Shown here: in pieces, positions 5,769 to 45,794 of the stretch
Layout of the letters: each line of letters opens with the position of its first letter
Numbering within the stretch: position 1 is the first letter of the stretch
Source: Calditrichota bacterium
GTDB lineage: Bacteria > Calditrichota > Calditrichia > RBG-13-44-9
NCBI GenBank assembly: GCA_016934605.1
Contig: JAFGSO010000075.1
Location: 1 to 45,988 of the forward strand
Direction: 5' to 3'
Length of the DNA: 45,988 nucleotides
Translations under genes and position numbers: made by a program
Notes under the pieces: model-generated
Database searches by the model: none
What the model saw: the letters and a program-made list of their open reading frames with translations, nothing else
Told to the model about the DNA's origin: nothing

Positions 5769-8573
5769 ATGAAAAGAATTTATCACGTAATATCCAATAC
5801 CCACTGGGACAGAGAATGGCGCTTCAGCTTTCAGAGAAACCGGCAGATGCTGGTGGAAATGATCGATAAAGTTCTCCAAATTCTGGAAGATGATCCCGAT
5901 TACCGGGCTTTTCACCTGGATAGTCAGTCTGTGGTGATTGAGGATTACCTTGAGATACGCCCCGAAAAAAGGGATCTCATTGCACATTTCGTTCGACAGA
6001 AACGGCTGTTAATCGGTCCCTGGTTTATTTTGCCCGAAGAATTTCAGGTAGGAGGTGAATCGCTGATACGCAATCTGCTTTTTGGGCATTCCATCTGTAG
6101 CGAATATGGTCATGTAATGAAAGTAGGTTATTCTCCTTTTTCCTGGGGACAGATTTCGCAACTCCCCCAGATTTACCGGGGTTTTGGAATCGATGTTGTT
6201 ATGTTTTACCGGGGCATTAACAGTCTGGATAGTCCAAAGGCAGAATTCATCTGGGAAGGAGCAGACGGTACGCGGGCCTTATCCTCCCGCTTTTCTACCA
6301 TGCCGCGATACAATTTTTATTTTTACATTTATCGTCCGGTTGTTCACAACGAAAAAATAACTGATATCGAGTATTCCTGGCGGCGTAACGGTTTGCCATT
6401 CCACATTGCATCGCCTCCTCAGCATGATGAGGATTACTTCATTCTCAAACCTCCTGACAGTTATTATCCGGAAAATCTCAAGAGCAGTGTGGAAACCATT
6501 ATCCGAGATCAGGCAGATGATTTCACCACACCGCATGTTTTCTGGGCAGAAGGCCACGATTCCAGCGGGCCGCATGAAAAAACAGTGCAGATCATCCGGG
6601 ATATCAGCCGGTTTATTAAGGATGGGGAAGTGATCCATAGCACCCTGGAAATCTATGCACAGGGGCTTAAAAATTCGGTAGAAACAGAAAAGCTCAAAGT
6701 TGTGAGCGGAGAAAGGAGAAGCAGTCAGTATGACCGGCGCTCGGGAAATCTGTACGGATACACAACTTCTGCCAGGATGTACCTGAAACAGATCAATTTC
6801 GACTGTGAAAGATGGCTTCAATTCTATGCTGAACCATTCTACAATATAGCCAGGTTACTAGAAGCGGATATCCCGCAGCGTTATCTTGAAATAGCCTGGC
6901 ATCTGCTGCTGCAGAATTCAGCCCACGATTCCATCGGCGGCTGCAGTCTGGATGCGATTCATGAAGATATGATGAATCGTTATAAACAAAGCCGGGAAAT
7001 TACACGGGGTGTATTTGAAAGAGCCTGCAAACATCTGGCAAAACAGATTGATTTATCCGCTTACGATAAGAATGATATTTTTCTGGTGGCATTAAATCCT
7101 CTGACATTTCCAAATTCATCCTGTATCGAAGCATATATTGATATTCCGGCCAGTTTAGATCGGGGAGGTCTCCGGATAAAAAAGCTTGACGGCGAGGAGA
7201 TGCCTGTCCAGTTGCTGAAACGCTTTCCGGCAGAACCGGTGGTGGAGCAGATGATCGACCGTCCCATGTATCTGAAAATGATCCGTTATCATTGTCTGAT
7301 ACAAATCAAAGACTGTCCTTCCATGGGACTTACGACTCTGCAGGTTGTGCCTGTAAAAAAGACATTAATTCTTCCCGGAACCATTGCGCTAAACAAAGGC
7401 AATCAGGTTATCCTTGAAAACCGTTTCCTGAAAATTCTGATCAATAAAAACGGAACTTTTAATGTCATTGATAAACGGAACCGGCAGGAATTTCATCAGC
7501 TGGGTTATTTCCTGGATGAAGGAGAGGCCGGACATGCCTGGATTCATGAAGCAGTAGATCCGGTTCCGGATACAAAAAATTCCACTCCGGAAATCAAGAT
7601 TTTGCGAAATGGGCCATTGCAGGCAACCGCACTGATCCGCCATCATTTCAGGATTTCGAAAAATCTGACACGGAATGGTAAGCGTTCCGGACGGCAAACT
7701 GTTTTACCAATTGAAATGGAAATAGGATTGGACAAAGAATCGCCGCGGGTAAATCTGTATATCAGACTGGACAATACCGCTGAATCTCACCGATTGAGAA
7801 TAATGTTTCCCCTGGATATTCCCACCGAGTATTCCTTTGGGGAAGGACAATTTGATGTGGTGAAGCGTTACATCGAACGGGAAGATACCGGCAACTGGGT
7901 GGAACAGCCGATGCTGGATTACCCCATGCATCACTTCGTGGATGTTTCCGACGGAAATTGCGGAGCTGCTGTTCTGGTGGACGGTCTCAAAGAATATGAA
8001 GTCATAGATAATCCGCAACGGTTGCTGGCTATTACCCTGCTGCGCTGCTTCCGTTACATCATCCAGCCCAGTGCGTTGCAGGATTATTCCCATCAAAAAG
8101 GATCACAGTGTCCCGGAAAACATGAATTCCGGCTGGCTTTTTACCCCCACCCGGGATATTGGGATAAAGGTCAGGTTTTTACCGAGGCGTTGAAATTCAA
8201 TCTGCCCGTGAAAAGTTTTCAGATTGGTCATAACCGGGGAGTGATTCCACCCGATGTTTCTTTCTTCAGAATCGAACCGGAAACACTGATATTCAGTTGC
8301 CTCAAAAAGACGGAAAAAAATTCTGAAAGAACTATTATTATCCGCTTATATAATCCAACCAACCAGAAAATTTCCGGAAAATTGAAAACTTTTTTTTCAT
8401 TAGAAAAATGTGAAGAAGTGACTCTGGAAGAAGTGACTCTGGAAGAAGTGACTCTGGAAGAAGTGACTTTGAAACAAATGACTCCCCTCAATTCTAATGA
8501 GATAGTTTTAGATGTTTCCCCGAAAAAAATAGTGACACTGAGCCTGGAAATAAGGAAAAAACAGCCAGAATAG
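5769..8573 (+). CDS. Glycoside hydrolase family 38 alpha-mannosidase (cytoplasmic)
   Basis: 934-aa ORF. The N-terminus HVISNTHWDREWRFSF, then GPWFILPEEF..GESLIRNLL and NSAHDSIGGCS, are typical GH38 blocks. No signal peptide. Confidence 0.85.
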   Translation: MKRIYHVISNTHWDREWRFSFQRNRQMLVEMIDKVLQILEDDPDYRAFHLDSQSVVIEDYLEIRPEKRDLIAHFVRQKRLLIGPWFILPEEFQVGGESLIRNLLFGHSICSEYGHVMKVGYSPFSWGQISQLPQIYRGFGIDVVMFYRGINSLDSPKAEFIWEGADGTRALSSRFSTMPRYNFYFYIYRPVVHNEKITDIEYSWRRNGLPFHIASPPQHDEDYFILKPPDSYYPENLKSSVETIIRDQADDFTTPHVFWAEGHDSSGPHEKTVQIIRDISRFIKDGEVIHSTLEIYAQGLKNSVETEKLKVVSGERRSSQYDRRSGNLYGYTTSARMYLKQINFDCERWLQFYAEPFYNIARLLEADIPQRYLEIAWHLLLQNSAHDSIGGCSLDAIHEDMMNRYKQSREITRGVFERACKHLAKQIDLSAYDKNDIFLVALNPLTFPNSSCIEAYIDIPASLDRGGLRIKKLDGEEMPVQLLKRFPAEPVVEQMIDRPMYLKMIRYHCLIQIKDCPSMGLTTLQVVPVKKTLILPGTIALNKGNQVILENRFLKILINKNGTFNVIDKRNRQEFHQLGYFLDEGEAGHAWIHEAVDPVPDTKNSTPEIKILRNGPLQATALIRHHFRISKNLTRNGKRSGRQTVLPIEMEIGLDKESPRVNLYIRLDNTAESHRLRIMFPLDIPTEYSFGEGQFDVVKRYIEREDTGNWVEQPMLDYPMHHFVDVSDGNCGAAVLVDGLKEYEVIDNPQRLLAITLLRCFRYIIQPSALQDYSHQKGSQCPGKHEFRLAFYPHPGYWDKGQVFTEALKFNLPVKSFQIGHNRGVIPPDVSFFRIEPETLIFSCLKKTEKNSERTIIIRLYNPTNQKISGKLKTFFSLEKCEEVTLEEVTLEEVTLEEVTLKQMTPLNSNEIVLDVSPKKIVTLSLEIRKKQPE
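8412..8471 (+). repeat. In-frame 15-bp tandem repeat (GAAGAAGTGACTCTG x4) encoding (EEVTL)4 near the GH38 C-terminus
   Basis: Four consecutive 15-nt units read directly. The first three are identical and the fourth has one C-to-T change. Confidence 0.95.
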
Positions 8574-15227: not shown

Positions 15228-17081
15228 TTACTTCAGAATCATCATTTTTCTGGCAATGCTTTCCTGGTCACTTTTTAATACATAGTGGTAAATACCGCTG
15301 GTTAAATTGGTTGAGTTAACTGTGACGCTGTGTTCACCTGCCGAAATTTTTCCCTGAAAAACGTTCCTGACCAATCGCCCCAGGATATCATAAATCAGAA
15401 TACAAACCTCGTTTGAATGAGGAATCCGAAACCGAATGGTAGTGGATGAATTAAACGGATTGGGATAATTCTGAAGAAGCTGCCATCCTTCAACCGGATT
15501 TGTAATGGCGGATTTTTCCGGAATTCCGGTTATCATGGAAGCTCTGTTTGAATTTAAGAGCATTACCGCATCGGTGAACAGAATTTTGCTGCCGGTATTT
15601 TCATTATCCAGCCGTAAAAAGGTAGCCGAATCACCCTGTTCAAGATAATAATCCCCTATTTTGTGCCAGCGGGCATTGCCCTCCAGGCTCTGATCAACAT
15701 ATACCGTGTCAATCCCTGCGGAATGAAGCACTTGATAAGCGGCCTGTTGAGTGGCATTAAACTGGTAAATTAGATATGCATACAGCTCATACCAGCCAGA
15801 TCGTGGTATATCTGCTGAATATTCAATCCATTCGCCACCTCCGCCCAGGCTATAGAGACAACCATTCTCAAAACCGGGTAGAGTGGAATAAACCGTCCAT
15901 CCGGATGATCTTTGAATTCCCGGATCATCCTCATTTACGATGATCGCCGGCTGGCGCCAGTCTACAAGGCGATTCGGTATAGAAACCGGTGTTAGATAGA
16001 CACTGTCCCGTAATTCCGGCAGGTCGTCTGCCACGGTGTTATAATACCAGATTACATGGCCGGGAAGTCCGCGGTTCCGGATGGTCTCAATCATACCGAT
16101 AATTTCACCGGTCGGTACCAGATAAGAATTTGTTATGGAGGTGAGACCCGGATAGAAGCGGCTGGGATCGTTTACATAATTTAATTGCAGGTCAAGTTCG
16201 TAGGTAAAGGAGGCATTGCTTGAACGGTAGACCTGAGGCGTCACAAAGTCCAGATGACCTTCGTTTATCCAGGGTCTCCAGTCCTGACAGAAATTGTCAT
16301 AGCCATAGGGATAAACAATGGGTGCATTACTGATTTCCAGATCGGGACGGACCGCCTTGAGGCTATCATAAGCCCGGGCCATGAATTCGGTCAATTTCTC
16401 AGCTCGCCAGCGTCTCCATTCGGGATCGGAAATGTTCTGAGGTGGTGGATTCCCATTGTGATCGTTTTTATACAGTTGAATCGTCACGGAATCATATCCA
16501 CAGTCCAGCTCAGGATAACGAACCCGATCGAATTCAATACCATCCACATCATATCGTGTCACCACTTCCTGACAGAGGTCGATAAGGAACTGCTGAGCAT
16601 CGGGATTGGTATGGGCCAACCATTTGTATTCGTAGGCACCATTGAAAAGCACCGATCCGCTCCTGCTTCGGGAAAACCAGTCCGGATGCACCTGATACAG
16701 ATGATCCGAACTGCCCTGACATGCCACGAATCCATATTCAAACCAGGCCTCCACATGCAATCCCACACGATGTCCCTCAGCGATCATGTCTTCAAGCACA
16801 TCCCGGCCTTGAGGCAGGGCCGGATCTGTCCACAGACCGGTTTCATTATAAAAAACCTGACTTTTAAAATAAGGATAACTGAACCTCCAGACATCCACAT
16901 ACACGGTATTCAGATTATGTGCAGCCACATCTTCCATCCAGGCAGCTATCTGTTCTTTCGAGGGTATATTGGATCCCGCCCAGGCAATCCAGACACCGCG
17001 GAGTTCCGGATCCTGAGACCGTAGGTTTGCCTGAGAAAGCAACATCAATGAAAAAGAGAAAATGAAGAATTTCTGTAACAT
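15228..17081 (-). CDS. GHL10-family (PF02638/DUF187-like) putative glycosidase, paralogue 1, with accessory module and T9SS sorting domain
   Basis: The ORF is open to a TTG at 17099. The ATG at 17081 follows GAGGGG and starts a signal peptide. Blocks are LRGVWIAW, EAWFEYGF, DGIEFDRVRYP and PQVYR. The C-terminus is LQNYPNPFNSSTTIRF...GIYHYVL...KMMILK. Confidence 0.75.
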   Translation of the reverse strand: MLQKFFIFSFSLMLLSQANLRSQDPELRGVWIAWAGSNIPSKEQIAAWMEDVAAHNLNTVYVDVWRFSYPYFKSQVFYNETGLWTDPALPQGRDVLEDMIAEGHRVGLHVEAWFEYGFVACQGSSDHLYQVHPDWFSRSRSGSVLFNGAYEYKWLAHTNPDAQQFLIDLCQEVVTRYDVDGIEFDRVRYPELDCGYDSVTIQLYKNDHNGNPPPQNISDPEWRRWRAEKLTEFMARAYDSLKAVRPDLEISNAPIVYPYGYDNFCQDWRPWINEGHLDFVTPQVYRSSNASFTYELDLQLNYVNDPSRFYPGLTSITNSYLVPTGEIIGMIETIRNRGLPGHVIWYYNTVADDLPELRDSVYLTPVSIPNRLVDWRQPAIIVNEDDPGIQRSSGWTVYSTLPGFENGCLYSLGGGGEWIEYSADIPRSGWYELYAYLIYQFNATQQAAYQVLHSAGIDTVYVDQSLEGNARWHKIGDYYLEQGDSATFLRLDNENTGSKILFTDAVMLLNSNRASMITGIPEKSAITNPVEGWQLLQNYPNPFNSSTTIRFRIPHSNEVCILIYDILGRLVRNVFQGKISAGEHSVTVNSTNLTSGIYHYVLKSDQESIARKMMILK

Positions 17082-17107
17082 CAATATCAATCCCCTCAAA
17101 AGACTGA

Positions 17108-17153: not shown

Positions 17154-19124
17154 TTACTTCATGAGAATCATCTTGCGGGTACCAACGATTTCCCTGTCTG
17201 CCAGCATCCGGTAAAAATAAACTCCGGAGCTTAATACTGCAGGTTTCCATGTTACGGAGTAGCTGCCTGATTGTAACCGCTTATCCAGAATTTTTTCAAC
17301 AAGGCGCCCGGTGATATCATAAACTTCAATAGCCACTTCTGCAGTTCCGGCCACACTGAATTTTATTTCCGTCTGTGGATTGAAGGGATTGGGATAGTTC
17401 TGAAGTAGCTCAAATTCCCGGACTATTTCTATTGGTTCGTGCTCAATCGATGTCACCTGGCCACGGATTTTGACATAGGTAGTATCGGTGGGAAAATATC
17501 CGCTTCCCAATTCAGCAGTATAATAATACTGTGTAAATGTTGCACCATTTCCAATGGGATTTCCCTCAGGAAATGAACACAGCACATTTCCGGAAACACT
17601 ATTCTCCGCTACATACATCATGATGCTGATATCATCGAAGCCGGTTCCGATTCCGGCCGCATTCCGGACAGCAGCCATCTCCACAATCTTTCGCGACCCT
17701 TCATCGCCATAAGCCAGAGCTCCCTGGGAAGCCAGATTGCCGTCAAAGAAAGTCTCGTCCCAGCTGGATCCATTCCACTTGAAGATGGATCCCAGCAGAT
17801 AATCTGCCTGATTATAAGGTTCAACCATGATAACGACATCGGCATTGAAGGAAAGCTGTGTTACACCACCGTAATCGAGGGGAGGTGTGGCAGTACCATT
17901 ACCACCTGCAGGATCCAGGTCGAAAGCTACAAACATATATTTGGTAAGCGTCGGATCGATCAGGGTTTGTCCCCTTACACCCACAAAGACCTTTCCTTCC
18001 GACCAGGTAAGATACATGTCTCTCTCGTTACTGGCCCCCACATGGTCCGTTGGGAAAAAGTCATTAATTCCATCCATGGAAATTTCCAGAGTATCCCGGC
18101 GCGGTGTGGATGCTTTCAGAAGAGTGTCCAGTGTACTGGAGGCAATACTGTTATATCCGAATAACGAAAGGATGGCATGCCTTCTGGAATCGTATGCCAG
18201 AACAGAGGTGGCGTTGATATTGGTGTTATTGACAGAACCGTTATAAATGAGCGGGAGGGAATCGCTGCTCATCCCATAATAATCGAAAGTAACTGTACCA
18301 ATCTGGTCTTCATAGTATTTGGCCGATTTAATACTGATGGCATATCCGTTAGTGACGGTAAGCAGTTTATATTCACCCAGGATCATATGCAGAATGGATG
18401 CCGATCCGCCTGCTGAAAAAATTGAATCGGGAACTGTCGCAATTTGGTCACCGGTATTACTTATCAATCGGGGTGGTGGATAACCGCTGTCCGCACCATT
18501 GATCCAGATATTACCACCCGGAGCTACCGGCGAAATCCCATGCCTGGCATTCCCCGGTTGCGGCAAGGTGATATAGGAATCGAATACCAGCGTTGATCCT
18601 CCCTCATCTCTAAGGACAACCATTTGATCATTTGTCTGACCGGAGGAATAAATATATTTCTGAGAACCAGAGGCAACAGCCGCCAGGGCATCCCCATACC
18701 GTCCATCCGCCAGGGCATCATCAAAAACCAGCTCGGGAGATGCGGTCTCATTCGCGTAACGATAAACTTTAAATGTAGAACCTGGTGTAAACTGAGGAGC
18801 TGAGAGGTTGCAGACGTATATAGTACCGTCATCAGCTATAGCCACCAGATTGATCGGATAAGTTCCTCCGCTGAGAATACCGGTATCCATTTTTCCCAGG
18901 GAGTCACCCGTGGCAGCGTCCAGTATGATAACATCATTTCCATACTTTCTGGTAGCAATCAGCACATGATCCGTGACCTTGTTATAAGCCAGTCCGCGCG
19001 TAACATCGTTTCCCGGATCCATGTAGCGGGATTCGGCCCATCTCACCGGATACTGATTTTGCTGGGCAGGAAGCAAACCGATGCCCAGGCAAAAAACAAT
19101 AAGAACAGTTACAAAGTATTTCAT
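17154..19124 (-). CDS. Secreted T9SS cargo protein carrying one copy of the repeat module found in the giant protein
   Basis: 656-aa ORF with GGAGGAGG upstream of the ATG and a signal peptide. The N-terminal half shares DHVLIATR, ILDAATGDSLG, GGTYPIN, DDGTIYVCNL and KVYRY with 8849-13840. The C-terminus is LQNYPNPFNPQTEIKF...GVYFYRM...RKMILMK. Confidence 0.8.
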   Translation of the reverse strand: MKYFVTVLIVFCLGIGLLPAQQNQYPVRWAESRYMDPGNDVTRGLAYNKVTDHVLIATRKYGNDVIILDAATGDSLGKMDTGILSGGTYPINLVAIADDGTIYVCNLSAPQFTPGSTFKVYRYANETASPELVFDDALADGRYGDALAAVASGSQKYIYSSGQTNDQMVVLRDEGGSTLVFDSYITLPQPGNARHGISPVAPGGNIWINGADSGYPPPRLISNTGDQIATVPDSIFSAGGSASILHMILGEYKLLTVTNGYAISIKSAKYYEDQIGTVTFDYYGMSSDSLPLIYNGSVNNTNINATSVLAYDSRRHAILSLFGYNSIASSTLDTLLKASTPRRDTLEISMDGINDFFPTDHVGASNERDMYLTWSEGKVFVGVRGQTLIDPTLTKYMFVAFDLDPAGGNGTATPPLDYGGVTQLSFNADVVIMVEPYNQADYLLGSIFKWNGSSWDETFFDGNLASQGALAYGDEGSRKIVEMAAVRNAAGIGTGFDDISIMMYVAENSVSGNVLCSFPEGNPIGNGATFTQYYYTAELGSGYFPTDTTYVKIRGQVTSIEHEPIEIVREFELLQNYPNPFNPQTEIKFSVAGTAEVAIEVYDITGRLVEKILDKRLQSGSYSVTWKPAVLSSGVYFYRMLADREIVGTRKMILMK

Positions 19125-27181: not shown

Positions 27182-28348
27182 CTACCTCTTCCACTCAAAC
27201 GGTAGGCGGGCCGGTTCCCGGTACCAGGTAGCCTTCAGGCTATCTGCCAGCTGATCTCCGTTCTTCCGCAACCCCTCGTAAAAAAAGAATACCTCACCTC
27301 GATACCCTTTCTCCCGGTTATAGGCAACTGCCTGCAGAAGAAATTCCGGTGAAATCACATAATCCCCTACATTCATCAGAACCCCCGGGTAGATCAGACT
27401 GTCCGGAGATCTTCCCAGAAGCGTTTTTCCGGGAATGGAATCCAGTGAACTCCGATATTCCTGAATGCTGTACCGGTAAACCTGAGGATGTATGATATCT
27501 CCGTTCCCCTGCAGAACCCAGGCCGGCCAGTCCTGAAGATATTCATCATAAGACCAGGGATATATGCTTGGTGCCCAGGAAACATACATATCGGGTTTTA
27601 TCTTCTTGACCTCACGGTATACTTTTCCCGCAAATTCATTCAGGATATCTGCCCGCCAAAGCATCCAGTCCGAGTCCTGCTCATAAGCCGGCGGATATTT
27701 CTCATTCTGCTCTTTCATATACCGGTCTATGGTATAACTGGAATAACCTCCTTCTACCGGCTGTGCCGGAAGCCGGTCATCACCCTGAATCCCTTGAACA
27801 TCATAATTTCTCACCACTTCCAGGATCAACGACAGCAGGAAATTCTGAACTTCAGGATGATATCCATTCATCCATTCAAAACCGTTTTTGGTCAAGAGAC
27901 CGCCATTGATATCGCGGGCTGACCATTCCGGCTTTTTCTGCAAAATCATTCCGCCGTTCTTCTGAAAAGAAGCGGCAAATCCATACTCAAACCAGGGAAT
28001 CACTGCAATATCTCTGCTGTGTGCCTCCTCAATCACTTCCTGCAGAGGATCCCGCCCGGCAAACCTGGGATCGATGGGAAAACCAAACAGCTCTTCCATC
28101 ACCTGACTGGGATAAAGTGTTTTGGCATCATTCCAGACGACCGGAAAGACAATATTAAAATGATGTTCCGCCAGAAATTGCATGGCTTCGCTGATACTTT
28201 CACGACTGTCCAGAACCCGACTGTCTACATTGGTCAACCACACACCGCGCAACTCGGTCAATTTGGGAAAATCTTTTCCCTCGCGACTGCACAGCATCAA
28301 AAAAATACATACAGGCACAACTATGAATATTGATCTGAAAAATCTCAT
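27182..28348 (-). CDS. GHL10-family (PF02638/DUF187-like) putative glycosidase, paralogue 2 (catalytic domain only; periplasmic or lipoprotein)
   Basis: 388-aa ORF. The signal peptide has a Cys at residue 20 (FLMLCS). Blocks are LRGVWLTNVDS, IPWFEYGF, WRADILNEF and PQVYR. Its start overlaps the upstream stop as ATGA (28348-28345). Confidence 0.75.
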   Translation of the reverse strand: MRFFRSIFIVVPVCIFLMLCSREGKDFPKLTELRGVWLTNVDSRVLDSRESISEAMQFLAEHHFNIVFPVVWNDAKTLYPSQVMEELFGFPIDPRFAGRDPLQEVIEEAHSRDIAVIPWFEYGFAASFQKNGGMILQKKPEWSARDINGGLLTKNGFEWMNGYHPEVQNFLLSLILEVVRNYDVQGIQGDDRLPAQPVEGGYSSYTIDRYMKEQNEKYPPAYEQDSDWMLWRADILNEFAGKVYREVKKIKPDMYVSWAPSIYPWSYDEYLQDWPAWVLQGNGDIIHPQVYRYSIQEYRSSLDSIPGKTLLGRSPDSLIYPGVLMNVGDYVISPEFLLQAVAYNREKGYRGEVFFFYEGLRKNGDQLADSLKATWYREPARLPFEWKR

Positions 28349-30264: not shown

Positions 30265-30369
30265 CTCTCTTACTAACTCTTTTTCAGCTTGATAAACCAA
30301 TCCATCATGTTTTATATTCATGAAGTTTTGTGATATTATTACCAATTCCACATAAAATATACGACTTTG

Positions 30370-31845
30370 ATGGAAATTTTTCAAATCATTCTATTCATCA
30401 CCGTATTTTTAGTCATTGCGCTGGCCATGTTCTTCCGGAAAATCCCGGCGGTGATTGCTCTTCCGCTGATGGCTTTTATAATTCCTCTTATTGGTGGAGT
30501 ATCCCTTACCGATACGATTCAGCTGGTGGTGGGCGAAGGTTCTCTAAAGCTGCACAACGCCTATACGGTGGCTCTTTTTGGAAGCATGCTCAGTATCCTT
30601 CTTCAGAAAACCGGCGTGGCTGAAAATTTTATCAAAATCGGGGCAGAACTGGCCGGTGATAATCCCTGGATCATTGCCGTGATCATGCTTTCACTTATTA
30701 CCATGCTGTTTACTACGCTGGGCGGACTGGGGGCAATTATCATGGTAGCCACCATCGTACTCCCCATCATGTCCTCCGTGGGTATAGGCCCTATGACGGT
30801 TGTGGGAGTTTTTCTTTTTGGTCTCAGTATGGGCGGCATACTCAATGCCGGAAACTGGGCGGTATATGTAGACGTGATGGGTTTAACACTGGATCAGATT
30901 CGTCCGTTTGCCCTAATCATGTTCGGGCTCACATTTATCACCTCACTGGTTTACCTGACAGTTCAGATTTACCGGGACGGTCATGAGCTCAATTTCACAC
31001 GCATCATCATCGTCAGCTCAATTGTCTTCACCATACTGCTGGTATTGTATATCATGTATTCACTCTTACCCATAGAAACACAGCAGATGCTAAAATCATG
31101 GATCAATTTTACCGGACTTATCCTAAAATATATGATCGGTACGGGAATTTCTCTGTTATTCATCATCAATATCATCCGCATTTTTATCAGGAAGAAACAG
31201 GAACTTGCGGCAATTCACTGGACTGCTTATTTCACGCCGCTTATTCCTCTTTTTCTGATTCTGATATTCAGCATGAATTTTATCGCGGCATTTATCTGCG
31301 GGCTGGTATATGGCTTCATGTCCACTTACCGCAAGGGAAGCCTGAACATGTTCATTCAATCTGTTTTTGAAGGAGGAGCCGTGGTTATGCCGGCAGTTGT
31401 CCTGATGCTGGGAATCGGCATGCTGCTGAATGCCATTATCGGACCCGGTGAGAGCTGGAGCCGCTTTCATGCTGAGGGCTGGCCGGTATTGAATCTGCTG
31501 AGACCTGTGATGATGGAAATTGTACCGGAACACGCTATCTCCTATGTGGTTATTTTCGGCCTGGCAGCTCCTCTGGCACTTTACCGCGGCCCGCTAAATG
31601 TCTGGGGAATGGGCTATGGCCTGGCGGCCGTTTTCCTGGCCAGCGGAATGAATGCCGGTGCCATCATGGGCCTGCTCCTGGCCGTGGGACAGGTTCAGGG
31701 AATCAGTGATCCCACCAATACTCATAATGTATGGCTGGCCAACGAAATGCAGCAGAATGTTCAGAAGATTTTGTGGAACACTATTCCTTATACCTGGTCT
31801 CTGGCATTTCTGGGTTTATTCTTTTCGGCGCTCATTTTCATGTAG
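30370..31845 (+). CDS. Polytopic membrane permease, ion-transporter superfamily-like (GntP/CitMHS/DcuC-type)
   Basis: About 491 aa from the ATG at 30370 (the ORF opens at a TTG at 30367). It has at least 10 hydrophobic segments and Gly-rich stretches (LGGLGAIIMVATIVLPIM). The family assignment is tentative. Confidence 0.45.
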   Translation: MEIFQIILFITVFLVIALAMFFRKIPAVIALPLMAFIIPLIGGVSLTDTIQLVVGEGSLKLHNAYTVALFGSMLSILLQKTGVAENFIKIGAELAGDNPWIIAVIMLSLITMLFTTLGGLGAIIMVATIVLPIMSSVGIGPMTVVGVFLFGLSMGGILNAGNWAVYVDVMGLTLDQIRPFALIMFGLTFITSLVYLTVQIYRDGHELNFTRIIIVSSIVFTILLVLYIMYSLLPIETQQMLKSWINFTGLILKYMIGTGISLLFIINIIRIFIRKKQELAAIHWTAYFTPLIPLFLILIFSMNFIAAFICGLVYGFMSTYRKGSLNMFIQSVFEGGAVVMPAVVLMLGIGMLLNAIIGPGESWSRFHAEGWPVLNLLRPVMMEIVPEHAISYVVIFGLAAPLALYRGPLNVWGMGYGLAAVFLASGMNAGAIMGLLLAVGQVQGISDPTNTHNVWLANEMQQNVQKILWNTIPYTWSLAFLGLFFSALIFM

Positions 31846-31873: not shown

Positions 31874-34033
31874 ATGAAGCGAAAAATTAAAATCGGTATT
31901 GATGTCGGCGGCACATTTACTCATGCGGTTGCGGTGGATATTGCAGATTATGAGATTGTGGGAAAGGAATGTGTTCCCACAACTCATACGGCCGAAGAAG
32001 GGGTAGCACGGGGAGTAGTCGATTCCCTCCAACTGCTGCTGAAAAATTCGCAAATAGATCCCTCTGAGATCATTCTGATTGCCCATTCGACCACTCAGGC
32101 AACCAATGCCCTGCTGGAGGGTGATGTGGCTCATGTAGGCATCATCGGCATGGGAAAAGGATTGCAGGGCAAAATTGCCCGCCGGGAGAGCAATCCGGGC
32201 AATATTGAACTTTCTCCGGGAAAATTTCTGAAAACCAGTCACCGGTTTCTGGACAGCAGTGAATCAATTTCTCGCGCTCAGGTAGAATCGGCAATCCGGG
32301 AAATGGCTGAAGAGGGAGCCACCGTGATTGTAGCTTCCGAAGCCTTTGGAGTAGATGATCCTGCCAACGAAGAAAAGGTGGTTCGAATAGCAGCTGATAT
32401 GAAATTTCTGACCACCACTGCCAGTCACATATCAAAGCTGTATGGATTGAGGGTTCGTACTCGCACCGCAGTGATCAATGCCAGCATGATGCCCCGTATG
32501 TTGGAGACCGCCAATATGACGGAGGAATCCGTACGTAAAAGCGGCATCGAGGCGCCTTTGATGATCATGCGCTCGGACGGTGGCATCATGGATATCAATG
32601 AAATGCGAAAACGGCCGATACTTACCATGTTGTCCGGTCCGGCTGCCGGAATTGCTGCCGCTCTGATGTATGCTAAAATCTCAGATGGTATTTTCCTGGA
32701 AGTGGGAGGAACTTCAACCGACATCTCCGTAATCAGAAATGGTAAACCTCAGGTGAAAAGCGCCCAGATAGGAGGTCACCGGCTCTATCTACGTACTCTG
32801 GATGTCCGTACAGTGGGTATCGCCGGTGGATCCATGCCCAGGATGAATGGAGATGAAATCGTCGATGTCGGACCACGGAGTGCTCATATTGCCAATCTGG
32901 GCTATATCAGTTTCAGCGGTGAGCAAGACTTTGATGATATGGAGCTGAAAACCATTCAACCGCTCCAGAACGACCCGGATGACTATCTGGCTGTCTGTCA
33001 CAAAGGAGATTCCACGCCCCGTTACACCATCACGCCGACGGGTGCGGCTAATTTTCTGGGATATGTAAAGGAAAAAGGACACGGACTGGCCAATATGACC
33101 GCCCTGAAGAATTTTTTCAGAATTCTATCGGTTAAATTGAATCAGACGGAAGAGGAAATCGCCCGGCGTATTCTGATAATCTCAGCCGAAAAAATTGAAC
33201 CGACTCTCAAACAATTGATCAGGGAATACAAACTCGATCCGGAACTGGTTCAACTGGTAGGAGGTGGCGGTGGAGCACCCGCACTAGTTCCCTTCACCGG
33301 TGAATACCTGGGTTTTAATTCCCGCATTGCTCAGAATGCGGAAGTTATTTCAGCCATCGGAGCAGCTCTTGGCATTATTCGCGATTCTGTGGAAAGAAGT
33401 ATCGTAAATCCCACTGATTCCGATCTTATTTCCATCCGGCAGGAAGCTATTGAGTCAGTACAAACCATGGGAGCAGTACCGGAAAGTATTGAAGTGAGTA
33501 TTGAGGTGGATACTCGTAACAAACGAGTGATAGCGGTGGCAACCGGTTCCAGCGAAATGCGTTCGAAAGAGCCAGGCATCAGGAAGCTATCTGAATCCGA
33601 AATCAGGGAAATTGCCGCTGCATCACTCAAAGTGGATCCAGATGCAGTTGAAATGAAGCAAAAGACTAGCTTCCTTTATGCGATCACCCTGTTGCAGACT
33701 GAAAAAAAGCTGTTCGGACTGATTCGTAATGAAATTCAGAAGGTGCGGGTGGTAGATCAGGAAGGAGTTATCCGGTTGCAGATCAACGACTGCGTGGTGA
33801 AGCAGGGAGAAGCCGGTACCGTAAAACAGACCATTACAGATGTTATAAATGAGCTGACAACCTACGGTGATGCCGGAGCGCTGGTTCCGGATATTTTTTT
33901 GCTGGTTTCCGCCAAAATTGTGGATATGAGCGGGCTGGTGCAGGAAAAGCAGATTGTGACCATGGCCGACATTGAGCTGAAAAAAGCTCCGCCATCTGAG
34001 CCGGTGATCCTGATCGGTGCCCAGAAAAAATAG
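31874..34033 (+). CDS. Hydantoinase/oxoprolinase family protein (HyuA-like, ASKHA fold)
   Basis: 719-aa ORF with [16 protein letters not shown] at the N-terminus, then [11 protein letters not shown] and [10 protein letters not shown] blocks typical of hydantoinase A. No HyuB partner is present in the window. Confidence 0.7.
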
Positions 34034-34066
34034 AAATATCGGCGGATAAAAAAAGAGGGTGTAGAA

Positions 34067-34304
34067 CATAGAGCTAAAAGAAAGAAAAAAGGATAAAGGA
34101 AAATGGATAATGGATAATGGGTAATGGGTAAAGACAAGAGATTCACGAATTTTCCTGAAGACCATTTTGTTGCGGGGAGAATGACATTCAGAATTTGCTG
34201 ATATCATTCTGGTCGTAAAATTTTTCTCGCATTAAAAATACCTATCTTCTAACTTTTAACCCTTTATCCTTTCGCCCTTATCCTTTTAGCCTCACATCTC
34301 TATG
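34067..34304. repeat. ~240-bp imperfect palindromic intergenic element built from heptamer tracts
   Basis: The arms are mirror-ordered. CATAGAG (34067) pairs with CTCTATG (34298). GCTAAAAG (34073) pairs with CTTTTAGC (34283). GGATAAAGG (34091) pairs with CCTTTATCC (34261). The left arm carries six 7-bp units (GGATAAA GGAAAAT GGATAAT GGATAAT GGGTAAT GGGTAAA) at 34091-34132. Confidence 0.8.
34141..34153 (+). promoter_or_regulatory. Motif ATTCACGAATTTT upstream of the HGSNAT-like operon
   Basis: This exact 13-mer recurs upstream of the symporter, in the same orientation relative to the gene (45896-45884 on the minus strand). Its core ATTC-N2-GAAT is an inverted repeat. Confidence 0.3.
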
Positions 34305-34355
34305 CTCTTTGCACCAACTTTCATCAAATCCGGAAACAAAAAAATTATTTGCTCC

Positions 34356-35789
34356 ATGAATAGATCTGATAATCAGTCACTCACAGCGCCGACCGCCCGA
34401 AGGGCCCTCAGTCTGGATGCCTTGCGAGGTTTTGCCATCCTGACCATGGTTCTTTCAGGCGTCATTCCCTATGGCATCCTGCCCTCCTGGATGTATCACG
34501 CTCAGCTTCCGCCCCCGGATCATCACTTCAATCCCGGTCTTCCGGGGCTTACCTGGGTAGATTTAGTTTTTCCGCTTTTTCTCTTTGCTCTGGGTGCTGC
34601 CATTCCTTTGGCTCTCTCCAGAAGACTCGAAAAAGGACAATCCTATCTGTCTATCCTGAAGTACATTCTGGAACGGGGATTTCTTCTGGGATTTTTTGCC
34701 ATTTTTCTTCGCCACGTCCGTCCGCATGTGCTGGATAATACACCCGAATCCGCAGACTGGCTCATTGCACTGGCAGGATTCATGATCATGTTTGCCATAT
34801 TTACCCGCCTGCCGCATTCCTGGAAAAACTGGATCCGCTGGACTGTGAAAGGCCTTGGCTGGAGTGGTGCCATCATACTGCTGGTAACTCTCACCTATCC
34901 TGATGGAACCGGTTTTTCCCTTTACAGAAGCGATATCATTATCATAGTACTGACCAATGTTGCCGTGTTTGGTTCACTGATCTGGTTGTTAACAAGTCAC
35001 AGCATCTTGCTTCGGATGGGGATCCTGGGAATTCTGCTGGGTTTTCGCCTGGCCAGTCAACATGCTGGCTGGGTGCAATCGGTATGGGAATTTTCACCGG
35101 TTCCCTGGATTTATAAACTGTATTATCTTCAATACCTGTTCATCGTATTGCCCGGTACTGTGGCGGGCGAATTCTTTTTGAAATGGATGCAGTCCAACCA
35201 TAAAAAAAACTCCAGCTGGTCACCTGGCCGCTTCTCGGCTCTGGCCGTCCTGACGCTTCTCTGCATTATCATGCTTCTCGTCCTATTACAGGCCAGACTA
35301 TCGTGGCAGACTGCGGTTTTGACTATAATTCTATGTGTGGTGATTCGCTGGCTGGTCAGAAATCCGGTCAATGAAATGGAACAATTATTGAAATCTCTCT
35401 CAGAATGGGGGATTTATTTTCTGATCGCGGGATTGATTTTTGAACCATATGAAGGAGGAATTAAAAAGGATAAATCCACAGTGAGCTACTACCTGGTGAC
35501 TACCGGCATGTCTTTCTTTCTGCTGACTTTTTTTTCGGTGATTCTCGATCACTTCTCAGGGAAAAAATATCTGAAATTGCTGATTGATAATGGTCAGAAT
35601 CCCATGATCGCCTATGTGGGAATCGCCAACTTTATCTGGCCGGTACTGGGCTTACTGTCCCTCGATTCCTTCATTCTGCAGATCACTCCCGGCCCTTGGC
35701 TGGGTTTTCTGCGCGGTGTTTTCTATACTTTGCTACTGGCATTTATGGTTAGCATCATTACCCGGAATAAAATATACTGGAAAACATGA
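34356..35789 (+). CDS. Heparan-alpha-glucosaminide N-acetyltransferase-like membrane protein (DUF1624/DUF5009 family)
   Basis: The ORF is open from 34302, but that ATG lies inside the palindromic repeat arm, so the ATG at 34356 (MNRSDNQ...) is preferred. It has the signature LSLDALRGFAILTMVLSG and is polytopic throughout. Its stop overlaps the next start (ATGA at 35786-35789). Confidence 0.6.
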   Translation: MNRSDNQSLTAPTARRALSLDALRGFAILTMVLSGVIPYGILPSWMYHAQLPPPDHHFNPGLPGLTWVDLVFPLFLFALGAAIPLALSRRLEKGQSYLSILKYILERGFLLGFFAIFLRHVRPHVLDNTPESADWLIALAGFMIMFAIFTRLPHSWKNWIRWTVKGLGWSGAIILLVTLTYPDGTGFSLYRSDIIIIVLTNVAVFGSLIWLLTSHSILLRMGILGILLGFRLASQHAGWVQSVWEFSPVPWIYKLYYLQYLFIVLPGTVAGEFFLKWMQSNHKKNSSWSPGRFSALAVLTLLCIIMLLVLLQARLSWQTAVLTIILCVVIRWLVRNPVNEMEQLLKSLSEWGIYFLIAGLIFEPYEGGIKKDKSTVSYYLVTTGMSFFLLTFFSVILDHFSGKKYLKLLIDNGQNPMIAYVGIANFIWPVLGLLSLDSFILQITPGPWLGFLRGVFYTLLLAFMVSIITRNKIYWKT

Positions 35790-37438
35790 AAAAACTAGCT
35801 CTTACACTTTTACTTTTTTCAATTCTACTACTACCAAATGCTCTCTATCAGCAACAATCCGCCGAACTTCGCGCGGTAAAACTGACCAATGTGGACAGTA
35901 ATGTGCTTTTTTCCGATGAGGCCATCGCACGGGCCATGGATTACCTGGCCTCTATCGGCATCAATACCGTGATTACTGTTGTCTGGAACGGGCATAAAGC
36001 GGATGGGGTCTATACCATTTACCCCAGCTCGCTTATGGACAGTATTTTCGGACAGGCTATGATTCCAACTTTTGACCAGAATCGCGATCCTCTGCAGCGG
36101 GTAACCATTGAAGCACACCGTAACGGCATAGAAGTGCTTCCCTGGTTTGAGATGGGGTTTTCTTCCTCCTATTCCCAGAACGGAGGACATATTATCAGCC
36201 GATTTCCGCACTGGGCATTGAAAAATAACGCCGGCAATCTGGTCGTTAAAAACGGATTCGACTGGATGTCCGGTATCAATCCCGAGGTACAGAACCTGAT
36301 AACATCGCTGGTATTGGAAATCGCTGATAATTATGACATTGACGGAATTGAGTTTTCCGACCGAATTCCCGCCATGCCGGTTCAGGGAGGTTACGACTCC
36401 GTTACCATTGCTGTTTATCGCAATGAACATAACGGTAGTTATCCCCCGCAGGATTCAACCGATGCTGCCTGGATGCGCTGGCGAGCGGATAAATTAAGCG
36501 AATATAACCGATCAGTAAGGGATTCTCTGAGAATGTGCTCACCTCACCTGCTTTTTTCATCAAGTCCCAGTGTTTATCCCTGGTCCTACGGTGAATATCT
36601 TCAGGATTCCAAAACCTGGGTTGACTCCGGCCTGGTGGACAATATTATTCCGCAGCTGTACAGGGACAATATTTCCGAATATATCAATGAGCTGAATAGA
36701 TCTCTCAGTTACGTACCGGCCGGTAAACGAGACATATTTTTTGCCGAAGTTCTAATGAACAAAGGAAGTTATACCATCAGTCCCCAGTTTCTGCTACAGA
36801 CCCTTGAAGCCAATCGTCAGCGGAATGTGATGGGTGAGGCTTTTTTCTTCTACGAAGGATTGCGCAGGAATAACAATCTTCTGGGAGATACTCTCAAGGC
36901 TACTTACTATTCACAGCCTGCACTCTTGCCACACCGGAACAGTCAGGTCTGGCGCCCCAGAGCGATTATCGTGAATGAAGATGAAGCCGGAGCTGAAATT
37001 ACCGGTAACTGGACTGTCTCCGGCATTAACGGATTCAAGCCCAATATCCTGCTAATACAGGATACAACCTATGCATCTGTTACTTATAATATGACAGTTC
37101 CGGCCAGCGGCTGGTATGATGTATTTCCTTATGTGGTGACCGGCCCGCTTACCACAAAACAGGCAAAATATACCATTTATTCTTCCCGGGATTCAACTTC
37201 TGTTCTGTATGATCAGACGGATTTCTATAAGCGGGGGTGGCAACCTCTGCAAACGGTTTATCTGGAGGCTGGTTTGCAGAAAATTGTAAAAATTGATAAC
37301 TCGGCAATTCTCCCCGGAGATATTCTCACCGCCGATGCGGCTATGATTATGATTAACCGTAAATTATCACCTGACGTTATTTTTACCTCAGTGAATATGC
37401 CGGAGGAAAGGAGAACACCTGTTACAGCGACTTTTTAA
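35786..37438 (+). CDS. GHL10-family putative glycosidase, paralogue 3, with accessory module; ends at an in-frame TAA just before its sorting domain
   Basis: 550-aa ORF with a signal peptide. Blocks are LRAVKLTNVDS, LPWFEMGF, DGIEFSDRIP, WRADKLSEY and PQLYR. The TAA at 37436-37438 is followed in the same frame by an intact sorting domain. Confidence 0.8.
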   Translation: MKKLALTLLLFSILLLPNALYQQQSAELRAVKLTNVDSNVLFSDEAIARAMDYLASIGINTVITVVWNGHKADGVYTIYPSSLMDSIFGQAMIPTFDQNRDPLQRVTIEAHRNGIEVLPWFEMGFSSSYSQNGGHIISRFPHWALKNNAGNLVVKNGFDWMSGINPEVQNLITSLVLEIADNYDIDGIEFSDRIPAMPVQGGYDSVTIAVYRNEHNGSYPPQDSTDAAWMRWRADKLSEYNRSVRDSLRMCSPHLLFSSSPSVYPWSYGEYLQDSKTWVDSGLVDNIIPQLYRDNISEYINELNRSLSYVPAGKRDIFFAEVLMNKGSYTISPQFLLQTLEANRQRNVMGEAFFFYEGLRRNNNLLGDTLKATYYSQPALLPHRNSQVWRPRAIIVNEDEAGAEITGNWTVSGINGFKPNILLIQDTTYASVTYNMTVPASGWYDVFPYVVTGPLTTKQAKYTIYSSRDSTSVLYDQTDFYKRGWQPLQTVYLEAGLQKIVKIDNSAILPGDILTADAAMIMINRKLSPDVIFTSVNMPEERRTPVTATF

Positions 37439-37705
37439 CTTTATCAGAACTACCCCAATCCGTTTAACTCTTCAACTACTATTACATTCGAAATTCGAAC
37501 AAGCGGATCAGTAAAATTGGAAATATTCGACATCATCGGCCGAAAAATCCGTACGCTGCCCGATGAATACAAGGCAGTTGGTGTTTACAAAATCGACTGG
37601 GCCGGTCTCAACGGATCGGGACAGCCTGCTGCATCCGGGGTATACATTTACCGAATGCAGGCAGAAAGGCTGATTCAGTCGAAGAAAATGCTGATGGTGA
37701 AATGA
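37439..37705 (+). pseudogene. Orphaned T9SS C-terminal sorting domain, in frame with the upstream GHL10 gene
   Basis: In the frame of 35786-37438 it reads [40 protein letters not shown]...GVYIYRMQAERLIQSKKMLMVK then TGA. There is no plausible independent start apart from a TTG at 37517. Confidence 0.8.
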
Positions 37706-37710
37706 ATGAA

Positions 37711-37773
37711 GGGATAAGGGATAAGGGATAAGGGTAAAGGAAAATGGATAAGGGTAAAGGAAAATGGATTCGG
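37711..37773 (+). repeat. Heptanucleotide tract (GGGATAA x3, GGGTAAA, GGAAAAT, GGATAAG ...), including a 20-bp internal duplication and a G-quadruplex-type motif
   Basis: Nine consecutive 7-bp units start 6 nt after the TGA at 37703-37705. GGG-ATAA-GGG-ATAA-GGG-ATAA-GGG lies at 37711-37734. GGGTAAAGGAAAATGGATAA (37732-37751) is repeated at 37752-37771 with two mismatches, both at its 3' end. Confidence 0.9.
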
Positions 37774-44873: not shown

Positions 44874-45794
44874 TCAAAACAGGGAGAGCAGACCGGTTTC
44901 ACGATCACTACGGGAAGCAAAAAAGCGTTGAATCATATATCCGCTCGTACCCGAGCTTCCTTCAATAATAGTCTTGATCATGAAAAAAATGACAGCAATG
45001 CCAAACATATTGTAGATAGAATAAACCGAGTTTTCCGGAAAACCCAGTTTCCAGACCGGTATAATTCCGGTCCACTGCTCCCGGGTGGTTTCAATGAGAG
45101 TATACCCACCGTCCTTCAGCGGTATGGACAGATGGAAAACTTCCGGTAGATCGAATCGTGCAAAACTGATAATACAGGTAATCACGATGGCCAGAAAGAT
45201 TAGTCCACCCTGGAAAAAATCAGTCCATACAACGCCATACAGTCCGCTGGTAATTGTATAAATAGTCGCCAGCACAATCATGAGGCTGGCAGCCCAGAAT
45301 TCTGGAGACAGACCCAAATAGTATTTGAATTGAAGAAATTCTCCAATAAATTTTCCTGCGCCGACAGAAAAATAGGTAATGATCCAGATGGTACTGATCA
45401 GGATCGCCAGAGCCGCAAAAAGCCTGGCCAACTTCCCATCCCGACCTTTTCCGAAGCGGAATTCCATCCATTCCGCCATGGTCATTACGCTGGCACGACG
45501 ATTCCATTTTCCCATAAAAATCATGAGAAATGCCATGATAAGTACCAAACCGCCGCGGATTTCGATGAAAAATCCCATCGTTCCGAAAGCATAAATCAGT
45601 GCGGTATTGATCATGGTCCCGCTGATATCCAGATTGGAGGACATTCCGGAAGCACCCAATACCCACCAGGGAAGCTGCCGGTCTCCCAGGAAATAGGAAT
45701 CGATTCCTGCCGATGCTTTCTTCCTGAAATAAATTCCAACACCCACCATGGCTGAGAGATAGAAAAATACAATGATATAATCCGGAAGTGACAT
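44874..45794 (-). pseudogene. Sodium:solute symporter (SSS family), N-terminal part, ending at an in-frame TGA
   Basis: 306-aa ORF. The N-terminus is typical of SSS carriers: DYIIVFFYLSAMVGVGIYFRKKASAGIDSYFLGDRQLPWWVLGASGMSS. Confidence 0.75.

Follow-up and report, generated by a model that had tools for sequence, protein, structure and literature searches.

One of three GHL10 paralogue genes on the contig analysed here is interrupted by a single in-frame TAA, which puts its sorting domain outside the passenger-domain polypeptide, and a fresh nonsense allele is the explanation of this truncation that we favour, at a probability of roughly 70%. The window analysed is the entire 45,988-bp contig (C543) of a MAG of 3.27 Mb, which consists of 555 contigs with a completeness of 84% and a GC content of 42.9%. 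The interrupted gene and its parts are as follows:

35786..37438, plus strand: truncated ORF of 550 codons plus the TAA at 37436-37438
35786..35851, plus strand: probable Sec signal peptide (MKKLALTLLLFSILLLPNALYQ), without a lipobox Cys, judged by eye from the translation
35864..36703, plus strand: GHL10 catalytic domain (glycosyl hydrolase-like 10, YddW/DigH-type), PF02638, residues 27-306
36965..37348, plus strand: complete Golvesin_C domain, PF25275, 50.8 bits, residues 394-521, profile positions 2-130 of 132
37436..37438, plus strand: in-frame stop TAA in the context TTT TAA C, at a variable linker position
37439..37702, plus strand: detached, intact T9SS type-A C-terminal sorting domain of 88 sense codons, followed by TGA at 37703-37705

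The codons around the stop read ...ACG ACT TTT TAA CTT TAT CAG AAC TAC CCC AAT CCG TTT AAC..., and the translation through the full frame ends in KKMLMVK followed by the stop. Sequence and translation agree here with the initial annotation, which had placed an in-frame TAA ahead of the QNYPNPFN segment; the comparison motif that it had taken from another cargo protein is likewise present, at 17396 on the minus strand. The catalytic domain was matched by PF02638 well above threshold (185 bits, cut-off 27.9, E 2.4e-54, profile positions 1-275 of 311). All enzymatic parts of the protein are spared by the stop and the sorting domain alone is lost. The 88-codon segment is open up to its TGA and scored above the cut-offs of both PF18962 (Por_Secre_tail; 32.5 bits, cut-off 27) and TIGR04183 (40 bits, cut-off 23), so that the earlier statement that this domain carries no further lesion holds. 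From base composition, the chance of an 88-codon open frame is about 0.009, and the sorting-domain HMM E-values range from 1e-7 to 3e-10. Thus, the frame of the tail is not a product of chance.

The evidence on the origin of the stop comes from the relatives of the gene. A protein search that covered 5.8 billion proteins yielded 760 relatives, the best 119 of which were used for the alignment. These best 119 homologues are 51-70% identical to the window's protein and 606-661 aa long, and for nearly all of them a precomputed PF18962 match is available; the sole 550-aa entry among the relatives is the window's own product. In the MAFFT alignment, the stop column is occupied by an ordinary residue in 119 of the 119 best homologues. 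The residue in this column varies between homologues (S, I, Q, N, R, T, E, K and others), whereas the flanking positions are conserved, with Phe at -1 in 84 and Leu at +1 in 114 of the 119 sequences, all of which read on through NYPNPFN. In addition, 40 related genomes were searched, six of which had a match at E <= 1e-50. Five of these six, with a match at 53-66% identity, were taken as orthologue-bearing, and their orthologues are stop-free open frames of 628-697 aa. The orthologue from G004, which is the only same-genus genome having the locus, is intact at 66% identity. The best database match (P0002) shows 70% identity and lies in a syntenic locus (L007), in which the gene order is that of the window, namely FAD oxidoreductase, 492-aa gene, hydantoinase-like gene, DUF5009 and GHL10. 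At the site of the stop, both nearest relatives, i.e., P0002 in locus L007 and the same-genus locus L009 of G004, have a GAA codon (Glu), and the surrounding sequence reads ACTTT(T/C) GAA CTC in these two compared with ACTTTT TAA CTT in the window. A single G-to-T change therefore accounts for the TAA, and from this comparison of codons we infer an ancestral GAA that was altered by a G-to-T substitution. With the nearest relative being 70% identical, the ancestral codon and the age of the event are only imprecisely placed.

The tail contains neither a second stop nor a frameshift. The ratio of CTD identity to GHL10 identity, calculated against the 119 homologues, is 0.61 for the window, compared to a family mean of 0.66 (sd 0.08), which corresponds to the 25th percentile of the family spread. 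Since there is no measurable decay of the tail, the event is recent within the resolution of these data. Overall, the intact homologues and orthologues, the GAA in the nearest relatives and the undecayed tail bear out a recent nonsense mutation, which had been one of three explanations proposed for the stop. Orthologues that also end at this point had been named as the observation that would speak against it; the orthologues run on into the tail.

The interrupted gene is part of a locus that seems to serve the utilisation of amino-sugar polymers and of which the following members were recorded:

TonB-dependent receptor
FAD oxidoreductase
hydantoinase-like ATPase
DUF5009/NagX-like acetyltransferase
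NanE
GH94 phosphorylase
phosphohexomutase (PGM)
N-acetyltransferase
Na+/solute symporter (SSF)
three GHL10 paralogues: 15228-17099 (minus strand), 27182-28348 (minus strand) and 35786-37705 (plus strand)

In the co-oriented operon to which it belongs, the interrupted GHL10 gene comes last, and its start codon ATG shares bases with the stop codon of the DUF5009 gene (ATGA, 35786-35789). Because it is operon-terminal and the next gene, NanE, is located on the opposite strand, a polar effect is not expected. The first gene of the operon (492 aa, 30367-31845, plus strand) had no Pfam or NCBIfam match and is kept in the syntenic locus L007 with unchanged length and position. Directly behind the GHL10 gene, GGGATAA-like heptamers are arranged in tandem (37711-37773), and the 20-mer GGATAAGGGTAAAGGAAAAT occurs twice in this array. 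Two of the three GHL10 paralogues of the locus have a Golvesin_C domain and a tail, and the third is a tail-less protein of 388 aa. The trio co-occurs in five related genomes (loci L010, L011, L012 and L013 among them) and is made up of one protein of ~630 aa with tail, one of ~380-400 aa without tail or Golvesin_C, and one of ~625 aa with tail. Its distribution is patchy, with one of the five same-genus genomes searched containing it. Paralogue 2 had been considered as a second truncated gene and was rejected, as the "1 TAG" in its match was an alignment overrun and the relatives are equally tail-less (379-401 aa).

A second lesion was found within the same locus. The Na+/solute symporter gene is cut by a TGA in mid-gene, where the complete same-genus genome G001 has Trp. 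The orthologous symporter copies of 21 relatives, at 58-69% identity, are uninterrupted except for one TGA in G012. The distance between the symporter gene and the three GHL10 paralogues is 6-20 kb in G020 and G022, and the symporter is thus a member of the same conserved locus. Two split genes of one pathway are present on this 46-kb contig, which accounts for 1.4% of the assembly. The damage to two genes of the amino-sugar locus, small numbers as these are, gives a hint of relaxed selection. For the genome-wide view, 5,416 same-frame junction peptides served as tblastn queries; the subject was the initial 2.0 Mb (49%) of G001, and matches that spanned the stop without a stop in the subject were kept. 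Off-frame and antisense shadows as well as natural gene junctions (DinB, HK/RR, E1 alpha/beta) were removed manually. This left four split genes, including the symporter. Two further damaged genes were found among the 88 sorting-domain matches of the genome. The lesions are as follows:

C543:43977..45794, minus strand: Na+/solute symporter (SSF), 605 codons, TGA at 44874-44876 after codon 306
C213:5594, plus strand: split gene, kinase-like, TAA; continuous in G001
C518:18802, minus strand: split gene, TPR/CHAT-like, ~1100 aa, TAA; continuous in G001
C490:706, minus strand: split gene, methyltransferase-like, TAA; continuous in G001
C532:7039-7266, minus strand: T9SS cargo of ~389 aa, TAA at 7171-7173 inside the sorting domain (...RIYNTAGE-stop-VVTLL...); Glu in the G001 paralogue
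C257:2355-2609, minus strand: orphan sorting domain of 84 codons with a stop before it; upstream unrelated ORFs in other frames

The orphan tail on C257 is probably the remnant of a deletion or rearrangement. Of the six nonsense lesions observed in the MAG, all but one are TAA. Overall, the MAG holds roughly 6-10 nonsense-split genes, which is an ordinary pseudogene load. A scan for split genes by codon-usage log-odds was also tried and discarded as too noisy, as the GHL10 case failed its thresholds and shadow frames passed them.

Alternatively, the TAA might stem from an error in assembly or consensus calling, or belong to a single strain of a mixed population, in which case most cells would carry a sense codon and produce the full 639-aa secreted enzyme. 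A MAG that is fragmented into 555 contigs and 84% complete gives some room for such a reading, and several single-codon nonsense lesions, most of them TAA, could reflect segregating variants. However, a Logan contig of run SRR13394437 (SRR13394437_1132388; 11,751 bp) matches the window without a difference across the 4,955 bp compared (32786-37740), including the TAA, and a 550-aa product with 100% identity was called on it. Thus, two assemblers agree on the base, and the TGA of the symporter is likewise present on a Logan contig of that run. The GHL10-bearing contig ends at 37740, inside the heptamer array. The reads behind it are probably those of the MAG, so that it represents a separate assembler rather than separate data. 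Substitution errors are rare in a short-read consensus, which also counts against an artefact, and the rate of ~6-10 split genes per 3.3 Mb lies within the normal bacterial pseudogene range and is not inflated. Furthermore, no intact conspecific allele was found among the 5.8 billion proteins, where the full-length query reached at most 70% identity and a 189-aa C-terminal query spanning the stop gave no match above 46% identity; exact-match DNA searches in which NNN took the place of the stop codon gave no hit in two DNA collections, of genomes and of metagenome contigs. A literature search on run SRR13394437 retrieved no paper. Taken together, we consider an artefact or a minor strain allele unlikely, and equally unlikely that most cells carry a sense codon at this position and secrete the full-length enzyme.

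The third explanation in the initial annotation was leaky read-through giving two localisations from one gene, i.e., programmed leaky termination, in which occasional UAA read-through would supply periplasmic and T9SS-exported forms of the same enzyme. As the tail lies in the 0 frame, only read-through could join it to the enzyme. A bypass by frameshifting was dismissed for this reason, and ACU UUU UAA does not correspond to a canonical slippery heptamer. Expression of the tail on its own was discarded as well, as it has no ATG and no signal peptide and its sole start, TTG 37517, lies within the domain and would yield a headless fragment of 62 aa. Read-through is compatible with a tail that is intact and in frame, and the C at position +4 counts in its favour, as E. 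coli terminates least efficiently in this context. On the other hand, TAA is the tightest bacterial stop and the commonest terminator of this genome, in which 1276 long ORFs end in 588 TAA, 468 TGA and 220 TAG. TAA-C is the rarest of the four contexts (57 of 588), so the context seen here is as expected for a stop that was not shaped by selection. The stop is present in none of the 119 best homologues and in none of the orthologues of the five relatives. No stop-reading anticodon was found in the 20 tRNAs recovered, which form an incomplete set, and the 121-nt stretch that surrounds and follows the stop is no more stably folded than shuffled sequences (z +0.96), which gives no indication of a stimulatory RNA structure. 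Other nonsense lesions in the locus and the genome lie mid-domain, where read-through would make no sense. A known case of programmed read-through, the Q-beta A1 protein, resembles the window in that an in-frame stop is followed by an intact functional extension; stops of the Q-beta type, however, are conserved and UGA, whereas that of the window is an unconserved UAA for which no stimulatory features were found. Thus, an unconserved stop that is the main terminator TAA, together with the lack of a suppressor tRNA or structure among those searched, makes programmed read-through very unlikely, and the two-localisation proposal is not upheld.

For the fresh nonsense allele that we prefer, the consequence for the enzyme depends on the secretion machinery. 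The genome encodes PorU (663 bits, cut-off 420) and SprA_N (110 bits); the GldM_4th profile had no match in the MAG and none in any control genome either. With PorU, SprA and the 88 sorting-domain (CTD) matches mentioned above, a working secretion system was available to the tail. In a review on this secretion system, P. gingivalis RgpB without its 72-residue CTD is described as not secreted and as accumulating in the periplasm, and the loss of even two C-terminal residues as blocking export (PMC5445135). Because of this analogy with the Porphyromonas protein, the 550-aa product should cross the inner membrane via Sec and be retained in the periplasm, folded but neither displayed nor released. 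The engineered RgpB (Seers et al., 2006, as covered in PMC5445135) is like the present protein in being a T9SS cargo without its C-terminal Ig-like signal. It is a laboratory construct in Bacteroidota, whereas the window holds a natural allele in an uncultured MAG, reportedly of the Calditrichota, and the localisation of its product is assigned by analogy.

A periplasmic location could also have been favoured by selection. In such an adaptive relocalisation, the loss of the tail would have been selected since a periplasmic enzyme privatises its products. It would fit that the catalytic and Golvesin_C domains are wholly kept, and that both the window and relatives (379-401 aa) keep a conserved tail-less GHL10 paralogue of ~380-400 aa in this locus, which implies that periplasmic GHL10 enzymes are viable. 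However, the allele is known from one population only, a parallel truncation occurs in no relative (119 homologues, five orthologues), and the symporter of the locus is destroyed in mid-gene, which fits decay better than optimisation. We therefore regard selected relocalisation as highly improbable. Slightly broader is the notion that the truncation is the first step by which a T9SS glycosidase that is secreted or located at the surface becomes a periplasmic one, be it via selection or via low-level UAA read-through, and to this we would give a slim chance. If true, such a step would illustrate the origin of tail-less paralogues, among them the conserved GHL10 protein of ~388 aa, from cargo genes.

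Compared with known systems, the case is most simply described as an instance of well-known nonsense truncation that involves no new mechanism. It shares with the nonsense pseudogenes of bacterial surface and secreted proteins a stop that arose by a single base, is limited to one lineage with intact relatives, and has a recognisable frame downstream. In contrast to nonsense pseudogenes in general, the stop of the window falls exactly into the linker before the sorting domain. With regard to the enzyme itself, E. coli DigH (YddW) is of the GHL10 type and degrades denuded peptidoglycan glycans (PMC12288456), and homologues of the window's protein carry the JGI name "uncharacterized lipoprotein YddW". 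Both DigH and the window's enzyme are GHL10 proteins (PF02638), but the latter, unlike DigH, has a Golvesin_C domain and an ancestral T9SS tail. The window's enzyme is probably nutritional and not divisome-linked, because it is encoded in an amino-sugar utilisation locus together with a GH94 phosphorylase, NanE, PGM, DUF5009 and a TonB receptor.

On the fresh nonsense allele, the course of events may be pictured as follows. A single G-to-T substitution (GAA Glu to TAA) would recently have introduced a premature stop into the linker that precedes the sorting domain, and the TAA allele would be dominant in the sampled population. The resulting 550-aa product would keep its signal peptide, the GHL10 domain and Golvesin_C and would be devoid of the outer-membrane export signal. 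After Sec export, the enzyme would stay in the periplasm, with neither passage through SprA nor processing by PorU. The 264-nt tail would now be untranslated, its decay having presumably not yet begun, and the whole locus might be under relaxed selection, as the cut symporter suggests.

For the annotation of this genome, this means that the gene should be recorded as a truncated T9SS cargo or a pseudogene, and that the tail of 62 to 88 codons should not be called as a gene of its own. In metabolic reconstruction, a locus with a broken symporter should not be read as a fully functional amino-sugar pathway. If the allele is real, it would be a natural equivalent of the T9SS tail-deletion constructs, found outside Bacteroidota.
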